The notes beneath the pieces were generated by a model. It saw nothing but the letters and a program-made list of their open reading frames with translations. It was not told the origin of the DNA and ran no database searches. Below, in pieces: positions 2,159-63,764 of a DNA stretch of 64,000 nt; position 1 is the stretch's first letter; every line of letters begins with the position of its first letter. Source of the stretch: Botryllus schlosseri (taxonomy: Eukaryota). Both the position numbers and the translations under genes were made by a program. The stretch is taken from contig CM119371.1 of the NCBI GenBank assembly GCA_051294905.1, positions 19,654,001 to 19,718,000 of the forward strand. Direction: 5' to 3'.

Positions 2159-2613
2159 AGCTTCTACGTGAAGTAATTTTGACATGAAAATCCCTACTTT
2201 CTACTTGTATTTAGATTTAAATTTACTGTATGGCTCCGACTTCCAATTAACAATCAACACTGACTATTTTGGCTATACCTCTGAATGTAATTTACCGCCG
2301 GGCAGGCATCCAGATTTATATTTCATCCGAATTACACACTCTTGGTCCTAATCTGATTGGTATAAACGTAACGTATGCAAGGATATAGAGTTATGCTGAC
2401 TGTTCGCATGCGACACGGTTCCTGCAAGCCCGGTGTTTTACTGCAATGCGTTACAGTTCAAGTATGATTTATTCTGGAGGTCGATATTCATTTCTCAAGA
2501 ATTATATATGACATTGGCCTCCAGGGTTCACTCTTGACAAAAACGCACACACTAGCTTTCGGCATTGTATCTGGAATCCAGATATGGAGACAGGAGCCAC
2601 TACAATAGTGTGT

Positions 2614-3001
2614 CCATAGTGTCCTATATGGTGTCGACACAGGCAAAACTCACGCCTCAGTGAAATTGTATCACGTCACAATTTCCATTTGGCTACAGGC
2701 AATTTGACGGTCATTCTTGACCGGCTTGCCGAGCATTAAATTTGGTAAAACGGGTATCGATCGAAAGCTGACTCTGCACTGATTACGAAAATATAAATTT
2801 TATTCCGTTCGTGTCCCTTGAACTCCCACAATCAGCCTCGAATTTTTCATTGTTATGGAGATTGGCATTGGAGATTGGCCAAATTTAATGCTCGGCAAGC
2901 CGGTCAAAAATGACTGTCAAATTGCCTGTAGCCAAATGGAAATTGTGACGTGATACAATTTCACTGAGGCGTGAGATTTGCCTGTGTCGACACCATATAG
3001 G
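2614..3001. mobile_element. Foldback MITE family C, internally deleted copy
   Basis: About 130-bp inverted arms starting CCATAGTGTCCTATATGGTGTCGACACAGGCAAA. Same sequence as the longer palindrome at 13447-14075. Confidence 0.85.
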
Positions 3002-12977: not shown

Positions 12978-14807
12978 CAGTGGTTCTAAACCGGTGTGCC
13001 ATTTACGTCTCGCTAGTGTGCCGCGAGCGATTTCTTCGGAATTTTGAAATTATGCGCAAAATAATTCTATTTTATAGCAAACGATCAATAATATAAATCG
13101 AGATTTATGTGAAGTTTGTATATTTGACAAATCAAAATTTATATTATGCCGGCAATCAATATCCCCGTCGAATTTGCTTTACCGGGCAGATCGCGTGCTG
13201 AATTAAGTTTTGAAAAATACGTTGATTGATCGCACACAGAGCAGAGAAGGCATCGCGACGCATGTGTGACAATGCAGTTTTCTAATCCTCACTGTCTCCC
13301 CAATCACAAGCGAGAAATGAACTCATTTGGAATGGACGTTCACGTTTACAAATTCGAATTTCAAACATGGCAGTCCACATTGTGATTGTTACGTATCGTG
13401 CTGGCACTTGCGTTAAAATGTAGGCTTGTAGGACAATGTTGTGTTACCATAGTGTCCTATATGGTGTCGACACAGGCAAATCTAACGCTTCAGTGAAATT
13501 GTATCACGTCACAATTTCCATTTGGCTACAGGCAATTTGACGGTCATTTTTGACCGGTTTGCCGAGCATTAAATTTGGTAAAACGGGTATCAATCGAAAG
13601 CTGACTCTGCACTGATAACGAGAATATATATTTTATTCCGTTCGTCGCCCTGGAACTCCCACAATCAGCCTCGAATTTTCCATTGTTATGGATATTGGCA
13701 TTGGGACGAAACAATTGTGTCTGGCTCTTTTTCTCTTGAGCTACTCTCTCGTTTCGCCAGACAGCATTGTTACGTCCTGAGCTAATCTCTCGTTTCGCCA
13801 GACAGCATTGTTGCGTCCCAATGCCACTCTCCATAACAATGAAAAATTCGAGGCTGATTGTGCGAGGTCCAGGGCCACGAGCGGAATAAAATTTATATTT
13901 TCGTAATCAGTGCAGAGTCAGCTTTCGATTGATACCCGTTTTACCAAATTTAATGCTCGGCAAGCCGGTCAAAAATGACCGTCAAATTGCCTGTAGCCAA
14001 ATGGAAATTGTGACGGGATACAATTTCACTGAGGCGTGAGATTTGCCTGTGTCGACACCATATAGGACACTATGGTGTTACTGTCGATGAATATGATAAT
14101 TGAGAAGTAAGGTTGATCAAATTATATCAGTTAACAAACCTCTTCGCCGCTGACGTTATATTCTGGGCTTGTTTTAAGTATAATTGAACTGTGCGTGGCT
14201 GCCGGTAGAACTATTGAGGTATGGCTATCCTCACGCGTGCTACCCGATCTGCGTGAAAATGCATTGTGTAGCCTGGTATATAGCCTACACCTCTAGGCTC
14301 TACGCCTCCGCATTTGTTAGCGGCAATCGCGCTTGAATTCTTCGACCCAATGCGACAGTGGGAAGATTTATTGTCAAACAAATCTTATGAAATCGTGTCT
14401 AAGGGCAATCCGAAGTTTTTGTGAAGTCGTATATCAAAATCCCCCCATTTACTTCCGTCTGAATACGCCCTGTTTGTTGTAATCACAAAGGAACGATATT
14501 CTGCCCTGAGGGACACGACTATCTATCACGGTTTAGTAAGCTATATGTGGGATTCTTTAAGGGCAGAAGTTTTCCTCTAGAATTATAAAAACGGATAAGT
14601 TTATTTAAGAAAAGGAAGTAAAGAACATTTTGGTTTGAATGCAGAGGTGGTCACATTAGTCGGCGTTAATACTGGGTGCTAATAAGTATTTTGGTAGTTT
14701 GCAGGTGCCGTAAGACAAAAAAAAATCAGAACCATTGCGATGGTGTGCCGCGAACTATTTTTCATTTCCAAAGGGTGCCGCGAGGTCAAAATGGTTGAGA
14801 ACCACTG
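12978..14807 (+). mobile_element. Non-autonomous hAT-like element containing a nested foldback MITE
   Basis: Ends CAGTGGTTCTAAACC / GGTTGAGAACCACTG. CCTAACC lies near both flanks. Confidence 0.75.
13447..14075. mobile_element. Foldback MITE family C, full copy (near-perfect 630-bp palindrome)
   Basis: Inverted arms of about 270 bp. TGTTA is duplicated on both flanks. Central direct repeat CTCTCGTTTCGCCAGACAGCATTGTT. Confidence 0.92.
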
Positions 14808-21607: not shown

Positions 21608-22838
21608 GGTTGTTCCATGGACATGAGCATGCGACATTACAACATGCGAGACTTCGGCATGCGACAATTTGGCATGCGACACATGAGCATGTGGGTTAAA
21701 TTACGGGTTAGGGGTAGGTTAGGGTTGGATTTATGGTTGGGTTAGGGTTAGACTTTAGGTTAGGTTAGGCTAGGTTAGGTTAGGTTAGGCTATGTTTCGG
21801 GTTGGGGCAGTGTTGGGATGACTCGAGTCATGACTTGACTCGAGTCAGACTCGAGTCACCTTTTTCGTATGACTTGACTTGACTCGAGTCACTTTGCTAA
21901 AATGACTTGACTTGACTTGACTCGGAGTATCAAAAATGGGGATTGACTCGTGACTCGGAGCGAAATTCACGAGTCAATTTCAAGTCATCAAGTAATCGGT
22001 GTCGACAAAAATCATTGTGTCTTGCATATGATCGGATTGCTCGCGAAACGCTCGTGTAACCCGTGAGAGCGACTAATTATTCAATGATCGTGCGTTTCAC
22101 TGTGCCTTCATTGTTTTTTCCGAAATAAATTGACCGCAAACGAAGTGATCGAAGCTTATAGCTTACGATGTCGTAAACTAGTATAGTAAAGTAATTTAAT
22201 AGTAAAATGTATATTTCTGTTTTCTGTTCTTACCTTAACCAAATCTCTAGGGTTATTGAAATTGAATTCGAATATAGTCTATATAGTCATCAACCATTGG
22301 CGCAGGCTCGAATGTATCTTATCGATTCGTTTCTCTATTCTCTATTTTGGCTGGTAACTATAAACTGAGGCTAAGCAATTATTTACGTAGTTTAGCAGTT
22401 CTACCGTATATGTGAGCGATATAGCGCCTTCTTGCGTGTATATTTAACTCTATATTCGTTCATTGGTTCAGAATCAATGACCGCTCAATCTGTATTTCAG
22501 ACAGCCAGCAATATGTGATGTCATAATCATGCCTCACACTTCGAAAAGCCAACTTGACTTGAATTGTGACTTGACTCGTGACTTGACTTGACTTGACACG
22601 ACTTGACTCGAGTCACCTCTAAAAATCGAGTGACTTGACTTGACTCGAGTCACCTTCAAAAATCGATTGACTTGACTTGACTCGAGTCAAAATGTGCAAT
22701 GACTCGAAATGACTCGTGACTCGAAGGTAGTGACTTGATCCCAACGCTGGGTTAGGGTAGCTGAAGTGACGCATGCTGATGTGTTCCATGCTGAACTGTC
22801 GTTTTCCATTGTTTCGCATGCTCATATGTCGGGCAACC
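21608..22838. mobile_element. Unclassified TIR element with internal TTAGG/TTAGGG repeats, interrupted by a family A MITE
   Basis: Imperfect TIRs GGTTG..GACATGAGCATGCG / CGCATGCTCATATGTCGGGCAACC. GGTTC on both flanks. Confidence 0.7.
21808..22749 (-). mobile_element. hAT-like MITE family A (nested)
   Basis: TIRs CAGTGTTGGGA/TCCCAACGCTG. TSD GGTTGGGG/GGTTAGGG. Confidence 0.92.
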
Positions 22839-41300: not shown

Positions 41301-44029
41301 CAGCAGTGTCAAAATTGGGATTTCAAAACATTCCAGACGCAACAGAGTTTCGCAATCAACGCACTTGTTTGTGATTTCGCCAGGTTGGATCTCAGTAAAA
41401 GAGGACTTGAAACGAGGGTTTAGCCTATAAAGCTGTGTGGTCAATAACAATTTGAAATTTAGCTGCGATGATCTTCCACAAAAAGGGAAATCAAAATACC
41501 CTACCTTGGTAAAAATGCTCTCCGTTATTGAGGGTTTTGTAATTGCGATTGTAATATTAGTAACAACTTGTAAAGAGTCAAATTTTGAAAATTTATTTTC
41601 TGTTCATTTTTGCTACACAGCTTATTGTCTTGACCGCTGACTTCCGAATAGTTGCTGCTTGGTGAAATGGACATATATATATATATATCGGTTTCGGCCA
41701 ACATGAGGCGGTACTTTTGGTCAAGGTTTCAGAGATGTGTAGATATCCCTGCAAGGTTTCCTCGCCATCGAGCTTTTTGGCGGCACACTTCACAGAGGCA
41801 CATGTCAGCCGAAATGTCATTGTCAACTTCTTGGTGTGTCGTGACGCAACACCGAAATGCTGATCTTTGTAAATTAAGCGTTTCTTGGGGGGGGGGAAGG
41901 TTACTCATATTAATACCAAGACATCTGGCCACAATAAATCACACGAAGCGCTAAGAAAATTTAAATAAAGTTTCCTTCAGCTTAATTTTCAAAATCACTT
42001 TGGGCCAAACTTCCAGCCTTCTCCAATGGGGGGTTTAGGGTGCGGCCCTGTGTTTAGTGTTCCTTACCATCATTGCATTTCAGCTTTCGGCGGTCTTTTT
42101 TGACATGCCCGTTTATCGTTCATGGATGATGATGTCTCATAGTAAAAACGAGCACTGATTGACTTGTTTTACGAAATAGGCATTTCGAAACGTACCCTAT
42201 CACGAAACAATTTGAAGCACAGACCGTGTAATGAGTAATGTGACAATGGCACAAAGAAGGTTTGAACTAAACTATATGGAAAGAGTGACTTATTGTGATT
42301 TCAATTGTTATGACATACTTTGCTACATTGGCGTTATGTTGAATATGGATTAAGCAAGCGAGCTTGCGAGGTACATAGGCTGCGTAATATGCGCGGCATA
42401 TTTCCGTTCCGGCCCAGTTTATAAGCTTATGGTTTAATTTCACGCAGTAATATTCAAAAGTAGGTTTTGTGTTTTGAATTTCAAGAAATGGACACGCGGG
42501 CTGCTCAGAATGGCTTCGCGGGCCGCACTTTGCCCAGGGCTTAGTTACATAGTCCGGCAAAGTTTGCTCTAATCAACTAAATCATACCAGTTCAGACTTT
42601 TTGCAATCACAGTAAATCAAGTTCTTTTCCAGTTGTTCCAGATGAGATAAGGTTTGACAGGGGTCTTCAATAAGATCTTCCAGCAAAATTGGGGTTGTGG
42701 TACTGTGTTTTTTTGAGTCTGCGATGATGTGACCTTTAATGATATCCATCATCTGGTTCATCTCTAACTTCAATTCTTTGATGTCTTTACGCATCAAAGA
42801 AACAGAGTGGTCACTGTATGCAGATGTTGGAGTTGATGGTGTGCACGGAGCAGCTAAAAAATTATTTGAATATAAGAAAGCTGGATTAATCATATGTGAT
42901 AAACTGATAATCTTACCATTACTCTGTGACAGGCCTCGTTGTTGACAGTCAGAATTTTGCAGTTCAACATTGCTTACAAATGAAGGAACGTCTGGAAAAC
43001 AGAGCGACGCTATAACTCAAATTCAAGAATGAATCAAAGTGTTAGAAGCTCGCTGATTGGGTTAGTTCCCTGCAACTGGCCGCTACATTCAATGTTGGGA
43101 TCATGCTGTTCTTGAACATTCTCCGAATGATGGCAAACTTGCATTGCAAGCATCATTGAAAACAGCACTCTTGCTTGTCACACTTTCATTGCCAGAATCA
43201 TAGGAGATGGCCGCAGTATTAGAATTGTTATAGGCATTGCTGCTTTAAAGGAAACACATCATCTACAAAGTATAAAAGTTTTACATAAGAATATTCTGTG
43301 TACAACATATTGGGCAGAATAACAGAGTATATTATACCCTGATCATCAGTCGAAATAGAATTATCCAAATTTTTTTTGGGCGGCTGACGTCTTCTTTAGA
43401 CTGTTGTCGTTGTTCCTCTTCAGACAATGAAGAGGAGGACAGGCTACTCTTGTCCGCAACTTCCTTCATATCAATCTTTATAAGCCTTCTCCCATACATC
43501 TAAAACAGATGGATAATATATAGATGGCAAGGTACCAGGCTTGTACAAACTACTGGATTTTTAAAAAGCACAACTAGAATTACTCAAATTTGAAAACTTG
43601 CAACTAACGACGGGCACTCTTTAGTTGTTTGGAAACTGCGGTACTGAAAAAACCGTTGGTTAGTTGTTCGTCAACTAACTAAACACGTAGTCAGTACAAG
43701 TCTGCAATACTGCAATGATACTTTATACTTGGTAGGCAAACTTTCACAAATTATTGATAAGTTTATACTTACTGGAACTGGATGAGCATTTGATCTGGAT
43801 TTTCTACAGAGACCTATTGCCCTTGTCATGTTTTCGTGGCTTCTTGTTTTTCCCCTCATCAGTGGCATTCTTTGCTTTCGTATGTGCTTCCACTGTCATA
43901 TTATTTATCTCTGGGAATTACCACGTCTTGGCTGAGCAGACAAGCGCCACGCTACACTATTATAGACAGAAGTACAAAAACATTCAAACAGAATGCATGA
44001 TTTGAGCGACCACCATGTCCTGATATTAT

Positions 44030-45408
44030 TGTAACGGGGCGCCATCTATGGCTAGTGACGACGTCATGCATATTGACGAAGCGTGTTGTAATTGATGCGT
44101 TCACTCTCTTGGATGGACGCCGTGCGAGGTGCACGTGCTGTGTTTACTGGTCATGTTTCCATGCGCCTGTGCTGCGATCTGATAGCTTGAAGAATAAAGA
44201 ACTTACAACAACACTGTTACAAATGGCGAGCACTCCAGTCTTCAAGCCTTTCAAGAGTCAGTGAGCAGTAACAAAGTGTCATGGATTTGTTGCGTAAGGA
44301 TCATGAATATATTCGTACAGAGATCAAGCGGGCTGATCGCCGGATTGACGACATGGTTGAGGCCCAGAAGAGTATTCTCGATCAAGTATTGAGTATTGTG
44401 CAAAGTTTCGGAGGTTCGCCTGCGCATCCAGTGCGATTTGTTAAACCCTGTAACGAGGTTGAATCGTCGGGAATTGTTCCGAGAAAGCACGAAAATGTTG
44501 GTGCACTCGTTTTGCCTGGTCTGGCTGATCCTGTGTTGTCCGAGGTGTCTGCTAAGTTGGATGGTTCCTTAGCACATCTTGAAGATTGTGGATCTGTGAT
44601 GGTGTCTGCTAAGTTGGATGATTCCTTAGCGCATCATGATGACTGTAGGCCTGTGATGGAGCCTGATGTGTATGCTAAGAGGGATGATTCCTTAGCACAA
44701 CTTGAGGATTGTGAGCCTGTGACTGAGGCCGAGGTGGCTGCTAAGAAGTATGATTCCTTCGCGCAACGTGAGAATTGCGGGTCTGTTGTGACATGTCATA
44801 ACATTGAAGTTGACCCGAGCTTGGACTTGAAAGAGTTGACCGTTTTCGAGAAAATCTGGAATAAGTATAATGCTCCGTTTGTTCTGTTGCCGACGGAAGA
44901 CAAAACGTACTGCGTCCGTACTGATGTCAGCAAGCTGAATTCCATTACTGTACAAGACGTTATCAAATGGTGCGGTGAAGAAATTGAGGACCTTGCTTCA
45001 CATAACTGGGTGGATGGATCGACAGACCTGATGATGATCGACAAGATTGTTTGGAATTTCATGTTTTTATTGTTGTGGGCTATTTGTTTGGCCTAGTCTT
45101 CATGATGTTGTATGTGTCTTTTTGCCTTTGATTCGGGTTTCCATTTGATGTGTTATCGGTTTTAGTTTAGAGGTAAATGTTCCTCGTGTTACCTCTAAAA
45201 AATTGGAGGGGGGTATATGTAACGGGCGCCATCTATGGCTAGTGATGACGTCATGCATATTGACGAAGCGTGTTGTAATTGATGCGTTCACTCTCTTGGA
45301 TGGACGCCGTGCGAGGTGCACGTGCTGTGTTTACTGGTCATGTTTCCATGCGCCTGTGCTGCGATCTGATAGCTTGAAGAATAAATAACGTACAACAACA
45401 CTGTTACA
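44030..45408 (+). mobile_element. Complete miniature LTR retroelement (TRIM-like, Gypsy-type signals)
   Basis: LTRs 44030-44221 and 45218-45408 (TGTAAC...GTTACA, 4 differences seen). 4-bp TSD TTAT. PBS-like TGGCGAGC after the 5' LTR. PPT GGAGGGGGG at 45205-45213. Confidence 0.95.
44281..45096 (+). CDS. Orphan 271-aa ORF of the mini LTR element (coiled coil, 4 internal repeats, hydrophobic C-terminus)
   Basis: Uninterrupted ORF filling most of the internal region. No RT, INT or PR motifs seen. Confidence 0.75.
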   Translation: MDLLRKDHEYIRTEIKRADRRIDDMVEAQKSILDQVLSIVQSFGGSPAHPVRFVKPCNEVESSGIVPRKHENVGALVLPGLADPVLSEVSAKLDGSLAHLEDCGSVMVSAKLDDSLAHHDDCRPVMEPDVYAKRDDSLAQLEDCEPVTEAEVAAKKYDSFAQRENCGSVVTCHNIEVDPSLDLKELTVFEKIWNKYNAPFVLLPTEDKTYCVRTDVSKLNSITVQDVIKWCGEEIEDLASHNWVDGSTDLMMIDKIVWNFMFLLLWAICLA

Positions 45409-48400
45409 TTATATAATCCAGCACTGTCACTATAGCTCATGATATTCGCAAAAGTGCAAACCAAACCAAGGTCTATACTTTATGACATTATACCATACAC
45501 CGAACCTACGTTTAATATTAAGCATATATAAATTACCATGCACCCTATACCCTATATCCTCTTCTCAAACCCAGTACTGTATAATATATCCTGTTCCCAA
45601 ACCACAATCCTTACCCGTCATCTTACAACAACTAACATATGCTTCGTAATTGACTTATCAGGTAATAAATAAAGTAACTTACATGTTAGCATCGTGAAAG
45701 AGATGATTCGCAGACGACCTTGACCAAAGAAAGGAGTTCTCTTTATACTCGCTAACATGTGCCTCAAACTCGAACAACCAAGCGTAACATACTCACCCAA
45801 TTCAAGATGAGCCATATCTACTAAAAAGTTTTTTAAATATGTATATTGTAAGTTATAAGTTCGTATTTTGTATCTACATTGCGGCGACATTGCGCTTACA
45901 TTATCGACATTGCGCCGGCATTGTCGACATTGCGCTGGTATTATCGACATTGCGGCAACATCATCGACATTGCTAGCTGTCAAGTATAATATCAGTTATA
46001 ATTCTTTGAATATAAGTATATTTCACGGTATAAGTTCGTATATTGCACCTACATTGCGCCGACATTGCCGACATTCACAAAGTAGATGGACCCGGCTGAG
46101 CCTCACTTTACCATGATTAATTCCTGAACGCGACTAAACCAAACCCACAGCTGCAGCTAAGCCGCCATTATGAGAGTGAGAGCGCTTTGTCTGCCAGTAA
46201 TATATTTCGCGCCGAGACTTGTATTCGCGTGGGAGAAATGACCTCTCGTTTACACTCCGGATCAGGAACCGGATTCGGCGCAGTATTTCAGCGATACAGT
46301 ACAGCCGGACTGGATGCGGATTCTGAATTTAATTTCGACTGCGGGATTTTAGCAAGAAGCTTACTTATAATCTTAAATACTATATCATGATTTTGGCAGA
46401 AGTTTTTCGAACGCAAAACTGGAAATTTTCCAGCCGGATTTTGCGGACGTTCAAATTGCCACCTAGAGCCGGATGGATTCGGATTCGAAAATTTGGGAAT
46501 CAGACCATCTCCGGAGGATTTAGAATCCGACTGCGTAATTATAGATAACTAACCTACGGAGGTTAGTTATCTATAGCATAATACACTAATACCCAAGCAC
46601 CGAAAGCAGCGGATGGGACGGAGCGCGATGATGTGGGCTAATATGATATTGAAGTTAATTGGTTTGATATCATATCGGCCGTCGAACACAAGTATGGAGA
46701 ACAAATATGATATGGTGCTTGGCTATCGCCGGGGCCTTGGGAAGCAGAAATATATCTAGACACAAACTGTTCGTTTGTATTGTCCTGTAACCAGATGGCC
46801 TACGTGACAAAGTGATACGTTTTGGAGTACTCAAGTATGTTTCGTCTTGGTAGGAATCAGCGAAATGGACGGTTTCTGTCTCTGTAGTATGCATGATATT
46901 CCGCTCTACTATCGTTGCATGTTGGCATAACCACATGACTTAGATAGAGAGCTAAATATTAAGGTCATAGTTTATTCGATTAGGCCAGGATCAGGCCCTG
47001 GCCAGCATTGAACTCGATGTATGCTTCAATCACGAAAGTAGAATTGCCTATGAACCATTGAAAAACCTTCAGATAATATCTGACAACACTGTAACGTGTA
47101 TGGCAACCAGGGTTCGCTATATATAGACTTTGCCAACGCTTAGACCGCTATAGGCATTGTCAAATGAGATGATGTCCCGGATCTCAAAGGCGAATGTGAT
47201 CCCTGTCTCATTGCGTGGCGATATTTATGCTCCAGAGTCACGGGACGAAGCAATTAATCCTTGATAGTAACAAAATACCTCACTCGTTTAATGATCGAAA
47301 ATGCTTGTCTATATTCTCCCTACGGCAAGGTCAAGAGATAATTGTATCGGATTGAAGGAAATCTTTATTTGCATAATCACAGGGCTGAAGCAGTGGTACC
47401 CACGGCTCTGGCAAAGTCTGCGTTTCTGCGAAAATGTACTTTATACATTAAGCAGTATCCATTCCCATAAGTGGTAAAAGCAGCGAATATTGATATTCAA
47501 ATGCAAATAGAAACACCGTTTCAGTGTTCTACTAAATTGTAAGTAAATCTAACTCTTTTGAAGGCATGCTGAATCATAGTTAAGGAAAAGTGTGAATAGG
47601 GAGGTCAAGGCCCACAATTGAGTATATTAGTAGTAAGTTCTCAATTGAGTGGTTTGTAAAAAGTAGATATAGGTAAATCCAGATTTTCCTACAATTAGAT
47701 CATGATTCCTCCCTGGCGTTACTATGTATAGATGTTCACGGTGTTCGTCCACTTGTTGTATATGCAGACTGTTTTAATTGAATTTGATTGTCGGTCTTCA
47801 TATTCAAATTCTGTAATTGCTCGGGATCTCAACGCATTAATCATTTCCCAGTCGCCAACAATTGAATATCGCGAACAGTACATATTTGAATATTGCGAAG
47901 GCGCCTGAGCGATTTAAAACATATTAAATATCTTTTGAGTAACATAGCTTCCAATTAGCTAAGGCCGATATTCATGCGTTGTGACGTGTCATGTAGGGCT
48001 ACCCTATTTTGGAACCAGGAAAGGAGGACACATTTTTAAAATCTTAAAGTTAATTTACCGAAATTGAAAATAGCTGATTTTGAATTATTCACTGGAAATC
48101 TTGCTGTGTTGACTAAAAAATAAAAAAAAGGCCATCACATCAACTCGGCTCCCGAATCCCGCGTTATTTGCGCCACGTTTGTGGTGTTGATTTAAACAAG
48201 GGTTATCGTTTTGAGTCGACTCCGGAAAGACGCGTTCGACGCGTCTGCAATACCTATTTCGTGTCCTTTATGCCGATTTCCAGTTGACTCTGTACATTAG
48301 CCTCGCTTTTAAAGCTGTAAAGGAGTACGAATTGCTCAAAAGGGGGACGTTTTCAATTTCTTTAAAAAGGAGGACAAATCATCCTAGAGGATGACGCATG

Positions 48401-61090: not shown

Positions 61091-62171
61091 GGACAATGCC
61101 TTGCTTTCTGAACATTCCTATCAGTAGCAGTCTAGCAGACTGTTTAATATCCTGAGATTAAATCCAGGACTTTCACCCCTCTGTAAACCTGATCGTAGTT
61201 TACGAGTGAAGTTTATATGACAAAGACTGAAATAGACTGGGACTGGGTCAGCCGTCAAGCTTGTCGTAGTTTTTATCCTAGCGTGAGACGCAGGGTTTCA
61301 AGTCCCAGAAGTCAAAACTCTGCTACTCATTCCAAGCGAACAGGATAGGCTACCATGCTCCAATTGACTGGACCCAATATTGAATAGTTGGTGGATGTAT
61401 AGCCCGGCGATATAGGACTACACCCAGTTATATATATCCTTGGTCGAATGCCTTGCCAGAATGTGAAATTTTAGGGCCAAATTATTTTAAAAAGGAAAAA
61501 AATTGTATTTTGTCCTACACTTACTAGGCTACTGCCATTTTAATTCATTACAGTGTTCCTATGTAGATAGATTTCTTCGAGCCTTGGACAGTGGAATACC
61601 GTACTCGAGAAATTCGAGTGCACGATGTTACTATGAGTGTCTCAGACCTTTTTACTTTTTAGCTACACAAAGTAAAATTTTGTTATGGGGAAATAAAATA
61701 CATTGCAATATTGTCAGATGTCGAAAGAATGCAGAAAGCGTGATGATTTTGTCATTTGCTGAGTATTCTCATTATGTTGTTGTTTTGAATCAGTTCATTT
61801 TCTTTATCGTTCACGATTTACTAAATAATTTTGGCCTAAATTTCAAAACTATAGTGTATTTTTTGTCAATCTAGTGTTATTTAGTTGCCAAATCTAGTGT
61901 TTTTTTTCACGAATCTCGAGTGGCACCACTGCTGACTATATCCACAGTTGTGATAGCTACGATAGATGAGTATGACCATGCGGCCTTTAGTTGTAGGCTA
62001 TTTCTAGAATCGACAATCTGACCCCTAAATGGAGGGAAGCGTAAACATTGTCGGTTCATTCTTTTTTCTTAGAAAGCAACATTTTGGAATTGCACTGATT
62101 GCAATACTGTATTTTTGTTACATTTTTGCAGCATAAGTAGTTATAGGTGTCTAACTGATCTCCTATGAAAT

Positions 62172-63764
62172 ATGGCTCCAACGGAATCTTCCTTGCATCC
62201 ACGGTTAATGCTGGATTCCATGAATGCATTGAAAGACGAAGAACAGTTTTGTGACATCACGATTGTGACTGGCCAAGATGAAATCAAGGTTCACAAATTT
62301 GTATTGATTGCCGCGTCGGAATATTTCCGAGCCATGTTTTCGAGTGATACAAAAGAGACAAATACTGGGATTGCCTCATTCCCTGACACTCCTGGGGATG
62401 TCGTGAAACAATGCATCAACTTCATTTATACTGGGAAAGTTGATTTAACTTTGGATCACATCACTGATTTCATAAAAGCATCGGATATGTTTTGCCTCCA
62501 TGACTTGACGAATCTCTATGTTGAATTTCTTTCTGTGAATGTAACCGTGGGAAATGTAGCGGATATGCTGTCGGTGGCTCTACTTTATCAGAAGGAACTT
62601 TTGAAAACCAACATTCAAATATTTTTTCGGGAAAATCTCAAGACATTTGTCGAGTCACAAGAACTGCAGTCATTAACAAAAGATAAATTCCTCGACATGC
62701 TGTCTCTTGTGGAAAATTGGGGTAAGAAATATGAAATGTTGAAATGGAAGGCAGTAGTGACCTGGGTCAAGCACGACATTGATGAACGAAAGGGCGCGTT
62801 TGATGATTGCTTCCGTTTAATTGATCTATCATTTCTTCCCCAACAATTTATACGAGAAAATATTGTTTGTGAGGCATTGGTGACTGATTCAAAGAAATGC
62901 CTGCATAAGATAGTGTGCTATGATTATACATTGGATAAAAGTTCGAAAGTGCCCATGGCTTGTGGTCAACAGATGACAGGCATCATATCATGTGACACTA
63001 AATCCAGGATGGTGTACAGGTACAGCCTAATTGAAGAAAAGTGGTCGCTATTTTCGCCACTTCCTTCCGGAATATCAACAATGTGGCTCGGTGTAGTTGA
63101 GCATAAAGGAATAATTTATATCACAACCGGCAATGCAGTCTTCCGTTATAGTGAGTTGAAATGGAAAAAGTTGTACGAGAACGATTCGGAGGAAGAATAC
63201 AGCAGGTGTATCATATGTGGAAAATACATAGCTATGGTTACACATGGACAAGTAGTCCTATATGAAATTGGCGTTGGCACGTCGTCATCAATTAAAATCA
63301 AAAGAAATGCACAATACACTAGTAATACATTTGCTATTACGAGTATGGAAGGATGCATTTATGTCATTGATGTTCTACAGTGGAGTGCTAACTCACATGC
63401 TTTTCGGATCAATTCGAGAACCATGCAGTGTATCCAGATCTCACCGATACCAATTTCAATCGCGGAAGGATCTGCATTTGGGTACAATGGGAATGTTTAT
63501 GTTATCAGTATCGATTCTAAGCGAGTTGTATTCTACAATGATATAACCAGGACATGGCAAGTTATCCCAGGTCTTGTCATCGGAAAATACTACGCAGGAT
63601 GCAAAGTTCATATCTCAGACAAGTTGTGTATACATGGAGAACGATTGGGAAAAGCGATAGGTACTGTAGAACTGGAAAAGTTCGTAGTATCTGAAGAAGA
63701 TAAGCAACCGCCCGTTCCGAAAGATATGGGTGTTACTGTTTGGTGCATGTCATTTTCAAAATGA
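62172..63764 (+). CDS. BTB-BACK-Kelch-like protein (KLHL-type Cul3 adaptor), coding region intronless
   Basis: 530 aa. BTB motif FCDITIVTG..IKVHKFVLIAASEYFRAMF, BACK motif WKAVVTWVKHDIDER, and degenerate propeller repeats (YNDITRTWQVIP). Strong acceptor TTTTTGCAG at 62131, 40 nt upstream of the ATG. Confidence 0.93.
   Translation: MAPTESSLHPRLMLDSMNALKDEEQFCDITIVTGQDEIKVHKFVLIAASEYFRAMFSSDTKETNTGIASFPDTPGDVVKQCINFIYTGKVDLTLDHITDFIKASDMFCLHDLTNLYVEFLSVNVTVGNVADMLSVALLYQKELLKTNIQIFFRENLKTFVESQELQSLTKDKFLDMLSLVENWGKKYEMLKWKAVVTWVKHDIDERKGAFDDCFRLIDLSFLPQQFIRENIVCEALVTDSKKCLHKIVCYDYTLDKSSKVPMACGQQMTGIISCDTKSRMVYRYSLIEEKWSLFSPLPSGISTMWLGVVEHKGIIYITTGNAVFRYSELKWKKLYENDSEEEYSRCIICGKYIAMVTHGQVVLYEIGVGTSSSIKIKRNAQYTSNTFAITSMEGCIYVIDVLQWSANSHAFRINSRTMQCIQISPIPISIAEGSAFGYNGNVYVISIDSKRVVFYNDITRTWQVIPGLVIGKYYAGCKVHISDKLCIHGERLGKAIGTVELEKFVVSEEDKQPPVPKDMGVTVWCMSFSK

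Follow-up and report, generated by a model that had tools for sequence, protein, structure and literature searches.

A mini Gypsy-derived LTR element of Botryllus schlosseri with an in-frame gag/pol patchwork ORF, possibly retained for its Gag helix

We analysed a window of 64,000 nucleotides of Botryllus schlosseri DNA (GCA_051294905.1, contig CM119371.1, positions 19,654,001 to 19,718,000 of the forward strand), and found in it a small LTR element (the mini element) whose features are listed in Table 1 in coordinates of the window. A sequence-only reading of the locus had described LTRs about 98% identical, a TTAT target duplication, a primer-binding site (PBS)-like site, a polypurine tract (PPT) and a single open frame of 271 aa, and each of these was borne out, with 188/192 identical positions between the two LTRs (3 substitutions and 1 indel apart). 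Together with the TG...CA LTR ends, these are the signals of a non-autonomous Ty3/Gypsy derivative. The tRNA-Arg 3'-end pattern occurs at 12 places in the genome, compared to 0 for a control pattern, and ARAGORN, run on four of these tRNA loci, called six of seven genes as Arg(ACG) and one as Arg(GCG). In the mini family, the PBS region opens an ATG-started upstream ORF of 13 codons; the autonomous copy used for comparison below has no ATG at that position, and its equivalent sequence continues in frame into gag.

Table 1. Features of the mini element and of its main ORF (window coordinates).
Feature	Position	Strand	Remarks
Left target-site duplication	44026..44029	.	TTAT
Whole mini element	44030-45408	+	1.38 kb, LTR to LTR
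5' LTR	44030..44221	+	192 nt, TGTAAC...GTTACA
Upstream ORF	44223..44264	+	13 codons; overlaps PBS; frame differs from main ORF
PBS	44224..44238	+	pairs with 3' end (CCA included) of host tRNA-Arg(ACG), 14/15 bases
Main ORF	44281..45096	+	271 aa; Gag-Pol patchwork by alignment
Gag N-terminal segment, codons 1-45	44281..44415	+	Gag 1-45; predicted helix, hydrophobic heptad pattern
Codons 60-89	44458..44547	+	Pol 204-233, in the linker between protease and RT; weak dUTPase resemblance in parent
Four tandem repeats	44545..44790	+	57/66/66-nt spacing; amplified from Pol ~249-268
Codons 153-185	44737..44835	+	Pol 249-281; takes in last repeat
Codons 183-226	44827..44958	+	Pol 359-402; decayed reverse transcriptase (RT) start
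Variable tail, codons 244-271	45010..45096	+	copy-specific hydrophobic stretch
3' untranslated region (UTR)	45108..45217	+	~75% identical to autonomous family
PPT	45205..45213	+	GGAGGGGGG; pattern with LTR junction confined to mini and autonomous family
3' LTR	45218..45408	+	191 nt
AATAAA in 3' LTR	45380-45385	+	
Right target-site duplication	45409..45412	.	TTAT

The element lies inside a dispersed repeat (window 43700-44029 and 45413-45543) that the genome matches dozens of times and that in a single-cell RNA run is transcribed mainly from the opposite strand. This flank recurs at 16 other places at 83-89% identity over most of 330 nt, with 56 matches in total. Reads and one contig run straight from one flank into the other with the element missing but, because the flank itself is a dispersed repeat, these joins may come from paralogues, and we dropped their interpretation as an insertion polymorphism. 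Elsewhere in the window lie an intronless ORF of 531 codons (62169-63764, + strand) that appears BTB-BACK-kelch-like by eye, as well as MITE-like inverted-repeat families and a GACTCGAGTC-rich repeat (839-1800, 21807-22767, 2608-3001 and 13441-14076).

A search of the whole genome (496 Mb), in which copy counts are lower bounds, returned at least 36 matches to the element. Seven of these, the window copy included, are young full-length siblings of 1330-1408 bp that are 91-96% identical to the window copy, and the others are one old interrupted copy (L021), solo LTRs and partial matches. The seven young copies sit on seven contigs, indicating independent insertions of the deleted form, and carry 4-bp target duplications (TTAT, GTAT, ATAC, ATAG, CTAT, ATAC and GTAG), while their LTR pairs range from 192/192 identical (two copies) down to 185/192; in L021, 167/196 positions are identical. 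The near-identical LTRs and the dispersed copies support the initial view of a young non-autonomous LTR element. The sequence-only reading would have been undone by a one-off deletion product of a Gypsy element, and this is what we found in part: the mini is a deletion product with a gag/pol-derived ORF, but it is no one-off, given seven dispersed copies with duplications of their own. In L002 and in L004 the two LTRs are identical, although the ORFs of these two copies are 6.4% apart, indicating that most change arose in lineages that were still transposing. As informative sites among the copies are mutually incompatible, which points to mosaic ancestry, we counted variants per site and not on a tree. 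In L021 (G000:C5 ~22945373-22947434), the leader is interrupted by 2.06 kb of inserted DNA that has terminal inverted repeats, is flanked by an 8-bp target duplication and is hAT-like by the usual criteria; the L008 leader has an 8-nt duplication with two altered junction bases at the same site, which looks like an excision footprint.

Among the at least 31 LTR matches we found no autonomous element with the same LTR, only minis, solo LTRs and fragments. Partial matches led to a full-size Gypsy family with ~9 RT loci that are 88-100% identical, whereas identity drops to 55-59% for the next families. The autonomous copy that we compared measures 5.7 kb, with LTRs 215/216 identical and a 4-bp duplication, and has nothing but gag and pol between its LTRs, namely a 416-aa Gag and a Pol frame of 1273 codons in which Pfam recognised protease, RT, RNase H and integrase, arranged as in Gypsy elements. 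In the Atlas, its Gag groups with PNMA/Retrotrans_gag proteins, and a protein database search with this Gag gave one distant match. Mini and autonomous family have the PBS, PPT, LTR ends and 4-bp target duplication in common. The PPT-LTR junction pattern is found at 16 genome sites, which are the 7 minis and 9 sites at autonomous-family LTRs. The PBS pattern occurs at 64 sites (control 3), of which minis and autonomous copies account for 7 each and the other 50 fall into two classes, and a tRNA-Arg PBS is also present in four of the five other Gypsy RT loci examined; hence, the assignment of a helper rests on the PPT, the LTR ends and homology. On these grounds, the related full-size family likely supplies the enzymes that copy the mini in trans. 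As the synonymous distance between the two is 0.6-2.0, the mini probably descends directly from a lineage that is sister to the autonomous family.

Two other small LTR families have the same primer site and exceed the mini in number, with 35 and 15 PBS sites versus 7. At the sites examined (11/35 and 5/15), an LTR pair, where present, mostly bounded a small element of ~840 or ~1225 bp, and none had a Gag, Pol or mini-protein match in the sense of the element, indicating that coding is not needed to parasitise the Gypsy machinery in this genome. The first is a TRIM family of ~835-845 bp (L045, L048, L050, L051, L059 and ~30 further PBS sites) with 167-nt LTRs, a tRNA-Arg PBS and 4-bp duplications, whose longest ATG ORF, of 33-88 aa, is unconserved in the five copies checked. 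The second (L053 and L055) is ~1225 bp long with 228-nt LTRs and a tRNA-Arg PBS, and both copies have an antisense-strand ORF of 120-123 aa.

As judged by alignment, the mini ORF is an in-frame patchwork of gag and pol pieces of the Gypsy family in the same genome. We aligned its segments to the autonomous Gag and Pol, with 1000 shuffles per segment, and none of the shuffles reached the score of codons 1-45 (29/45 residues identical to Gag, 64%), 60-89, 153-185 or 183-226. The pieces run colinear with their parental counterparts, and the three junctions preserve the parental frames despite gag and pol being in different frames, for which the chance is ~1 in 27. The four repeats of the sequence-only reading were confirmed. 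The first matches Pol 254-265 (score reached by 5/1000 shuffles), whereas the middle two alone have no Pol match (506 and 371 of 1000) and align with the remaining repeats at the DNA level; since the first and last match Pol and the middle two align to them, the repeats are an amplified piece of the protease-RT linker. Their units are multiples of 3 nt and vary in number (3 in L008, 5 in L021 and 4 in the window copy). The RT piece has changed at 7 of 17 columns that do not vary among the parent and five further RT copies of the same genome. A candidate in-frame integrase match of codons 222-262 failed, with 782/1000 shuffles reaching its score. Two earlier statements are thereby overturned, as the interior is not free of pol (codons 183-226 correspond to the start of RT, and 60-89 and 153-185 to the Pol linker) and the protein is no orphan, its pieces tracing to the gag and pol of a resident Gypsy family. 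Only residues 1-45 of the 416-aa Gag are retained, under apparent selection as described below, and the ORF holds no intact enzyme or capsid domain. Searches with the mini ORF gave no Pfam family at E up to 10, no scoring protein among 557 database candidates (lengths 149-475 covered) and no usable Atlas match. In the autonomous family (L025), Pol residues 214-258 of the linker are weakly dUTPase-like (best E 0.017; 8/9 matches are dUTPases), and Pfam calls no dUTPase in the autonomous Pol linker, which makes the case for a dUTPase-like origin of the repeats a weak one; the linker is present too in the five other Gypsy loci examined.

The C-terminal tail behaves differently from copy to copy. 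From about codon 244 onward, the DNA weakly matches the pol end and the 3' UTR start of the parent (E 0.0036), with the pol-end match read out of the Pol frame, and the seven ORFs are 271, 293, 293, 257, 257, 242 and 271 aa long. A hydrophobic stretch (19-residue hydropathy 1.6-1.8) occurs in 4/7 copies, the other three stopping upstream of any such stretch; in the three other tailed copies, the tail differs from that of the window copy after codon 264, and they lack the indel from which the final residues of the window copy stem. By this comparison, the hydrophobic tail arises where the frame reads on into T-rich 3' sequence. Hence, the hydrophobic C-terminus described earlier is real in the window copy and not family-wide, and the proposed membrane anchor falls, with the tail missing from three copies and its frame differing among the rest.

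We found the ORF to be free of stops up to codon 242 in all seven copies. Against 130 variants in codons 1-242, ~4.6 stops were expected at the overall substitution rate (Poisson ~0.01 for 0 versus 4.6) and 5.6 at the synonymous rate. No sibling ORF is disrupted before codon 243, where the earliest stop occurs, in the copy whose LTR pair has diverged furthest; with this lone stop set aside, codons 1-245 give a Poisson value of 0.007-0.026, and with it counted, codons 1-260 give a p of 0.04, or 0.12 under high transition bias. Stop-polymorphic codons number 2 in the coding frame versus 4-19 in the other five frames. The alignment has 12 gap blocks, of which one, a whole 66-nt repeat unit, lies within codons 1-245, and 11, most of them not multiples of 3, lie outside. 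Counted as 8 to 4 independent frameshifting events all outside codons 1-245, they yield a rough binomial p of 0.002-0.05, with several clustering in simple sequence. A neutral origin of this pattern, in which the founding deletions happened to leave an open frame, the family is too young to have lost it and the protein is inert, is in our view unlikely: the sample is small, p rises to 0.04-0.12 once the stop at codon 243 is counted and non-coding TRIMs thrive in the same genome, but luck would then also have to supply three in-frame junctions, repeat gains and losses that stay in frame (3, 4 or 5 units) and frameshifts confined to the outside, and stops are indeed present in L021, which is old and dead, two of them in the equivalent of codons 1-242.

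Protein-level constraint is seen only in codons 1-45, a boundary that was fixed by homology before the dN/dS test. Across the seven copies, this region has 6 non-synonymous and 8 synonymous changes (dN/dS 0.25), whereas codons 46-242 have 82 and 34 (dN/dS 0.89), so that the suspicion of a selected ORF holds for the absence of stops and for the Gag piece and not for the sequence of the remainder. The two regions differ in non-synonymous density (Fisher p 0.0009), with replacement sites in codons 1-45 depleted threefold, and do not differ in synonymous density (0.24 against 0.22, p 0.82), which points to a constraint on protein rather than RNA. It is a modest signal from a small sample of seven copies and 14 changes, all 14 private to single copies; the test within codons 1-45 gives p ~0.01-0.03, borderline after five regions, and the comparison with L021, which decayed long after insertion, gives a dN/dS of 0.63 that is not significant. 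AlphaFold2, run on an alignment of eight close sequences (mean pLDDT 38), predicted a helix at residues 2-43 as the sole credible element (pLDDT 65-77 in the first four ten-residue blocks), with 11/13 a/d heptad positions hydrophobic, consistent with the N-terminal coiled-coil-like segment noted earlier; residues 44-242 remain below pLDDT 50. The near-neutral replacement rate after codon 45, the disordered, low-confidence model past residue 43 and the decay of the RT piece would all suit an inert protein, which leaves the non-synonymous deficit limited to the Gag piece without a cause. Alternatively, translation alone may matter, with ribosomes having to reach a point near the 3' end, be it to spare the RNA nonsense-mediated decay or to get to the assembly site, and the peptide being irrelevant. 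This fits stops being avoided where dN/dS is near 1, as well as every ORF stop falling 226-399 nt from AATAAA, and excerpts of a Ty1 study describe translating RNA as nucleating assembly sites (PMC3945221). We nevertheless hold it to be quite improbable, because it would put the low dN/dS in codons 1-45 down to chance or an RNA signal, whereas silent sites there vary normally.

Transcription of the mini family is low-level at best. We sampled 3-13% of each of three RNA runs. In the single-cell run, second-mate reads, presumably sense 3'-end tags if the chemistry was standard 3' tagging, lie on the strand of the element at 45120-45347, shortly before the AATAAA, with a depth of up to 30; they carry variants of the sibling type, and at the PPT some of them resemble the autonomous family. 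A 3' UTR site specific to the mini has ~12 reads from 10 starts, and mini-type reads amount to about a dozen among 22 million. The bulk runs show a depth of 1-5 over parts of the ORF in both orientations. None of the runs that contain the element is recorded as RNA in the index, which counts neither for nor against expression. One run (X14), labelled as a different organism, has contigs with near-identical element pieces, for which a sibling species, a wrong label or a mixed sample are candidate reasons.

We suggest that the mini, a non-autonomous Gypsy derivative likely copied by a helper, keeps its ORF because the Gag helix brings the element's own RNA into the helper particle, an account to which we give an even chance. 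Multiple deletions of a Ty3/Gypsy lineage have left the cis signals and the in-frame gag/pol patchwork. The mini RNA would be translated, and the helix, as a coiled coil, would pair with helper Gag, such that the nascent Gag helix carries its own RNA to the assembly site and the benefit accrues in cis. The rest of the ORF would serve as a stop-free spacer indifferent to sequence, placing the stop near the poly(A) site (226-399 nt) so that the RNA escapes nonsense-mediated decay, or alternatively keeping the nascent chain tethered for longer. A product acting only in trans is a public good that non-autonomous copies would be expected to lose, and constraint across dispersed mobile copies thus suggests a benefit to the encoding RNA. 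In its most specific form, as a "tagged hitch-hiker" (a Gypsy element reduced to its cis signals and a 45-residue Gag coiled coil which, while being translated, docks the encoding RNA onto helper Gag), the idea is tentative, and we would lean somewhat against it. Available parts of the literature bear on it in both directions, as the N-terminal coiled coil of the Gag-derived protein Arc mediates self-association (PMC11880080), whereas Ty1 Gag is described as lacking cis-preference (PMC3945221), which counts against the cis model, as does the 13-codon upstream ORF that precedes the main start.

A Gag-tipped protein could instead act in trans as an inhibitor that controls the copy number of the autonomous family and is kept by host-level selection, as excerpts on truncated Ty1 Gag (p22), which inhibits in trans (PMC4599808), and on the dominant-negative coiled-coil fragment of Arc (PMC11880080) would allow, along with the limitation of the autonomous family to ~9 RT loci. 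We regard this as very unlikely, since the constraint spans dispersed, still-moving copies with intact LTRs rather than one fixed locus, and the element relies on the very machinery to be inhibited. Last, the accessory, env-like or captured membrane-anchored gene of the sequence-only reading has next to no probability left: database silence (no Pfam match, no homologue among 557 candidates of similar length, no Atlas match) and a hydrophobic stretch in 4/7 copies would fit it, but all well-aligned parts of the ORF derive from gag and pol, the tail is absent from 3/7 copies and frame-variable in the rest so that no anchor is conserved, and the autonomous copy has gag and pol alone.

It is understood only in part how LTR retrotransposons choose which RNA to package and why some deleted copies transpose more than full-length ones. 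The principal example of a fusion protein that acts in cis comes from the mouse element IAP 1-delta-1, whose primary paper is Saito et al. 2008. If the selection signal in the mini holds, the cis function would be narrowed to a 45-residue Gag helix of little-studied role and the cis-acting fusion trick would have arisen in Gypsy elements too; were docking by the helix true as well, the family would amount to a deletion series made by nature, mapping cis-preferential packaging to the N-terminal helix of Gag. If the signal is chance, this is an ordinary deletion family. In either case, caution is due with "orphan" ORFs of small LTR elements, which can be frame-locked gag/pol patchworks missed by Pfam.

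Among the mostly open-access papers that our search covered, we found no published small Gypsy derivative with only the Gag N-terminal helix. The mini resembles TRIMs in being small, with two LTRs, PBS, PPT, target duplication and no mobilisation enzymes, but at 1330-1408 bp its copies exceed the <1000 bp given, with the absence of mobilisation proteins, in the available part of one source (PMC10886601), and its interior is a long, apparently selected gag/pol-derived ORF. Like the plant TR-GAG elements, as far as they are described in excerpts of PMC8704663, it is a non-autonomous LTR element whose one ORF derives from gag and whose genome also harbours an autonomous relative, although TR-GAG encodes Gag over its full length (562 aa in the case cited there) and the mini an N-terminal helix plus Pol debris. 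According to partial sources, the Ty1 p22/p18 restriction factor is likewise a truncated Gag product of an LTR retrotransposon, and defective interfering RNAs with in-frame deletions are likewise helper-dependent deletion genomes whose frame is kept open, but the latter belong to RNA viruses and not to integrated retrotransposons, and serve as an analogy only. On our best reading, the mini would work most like IAP 1-delta-1, which in the accessible portions of two papers is likewise a non-autonomous element with an internal deletion and an in-frame gag-pol fusion, needing Gag and Pol in trans, and whose fusion protein "functions in cis" (PMC6466679, PMC7411935). By the same partial accounts, IAP 1-delta-1 is a betaretrovirus-like ERV from which a single stretch of 1.9 kb was deleted, an origin (class II ERV) that the mini does not share, its parent Gag being PNMA/Retrotrans_gag-like and its Pol Gypsy-type. 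The mini, with its putative effect in cis, is in contrast a far smaller Gypsy derivative of 1.38 kb with at least three in-frame deletions, and it keeps 45 Gag residues without capsid, nucleocapsid or enzyme domain.
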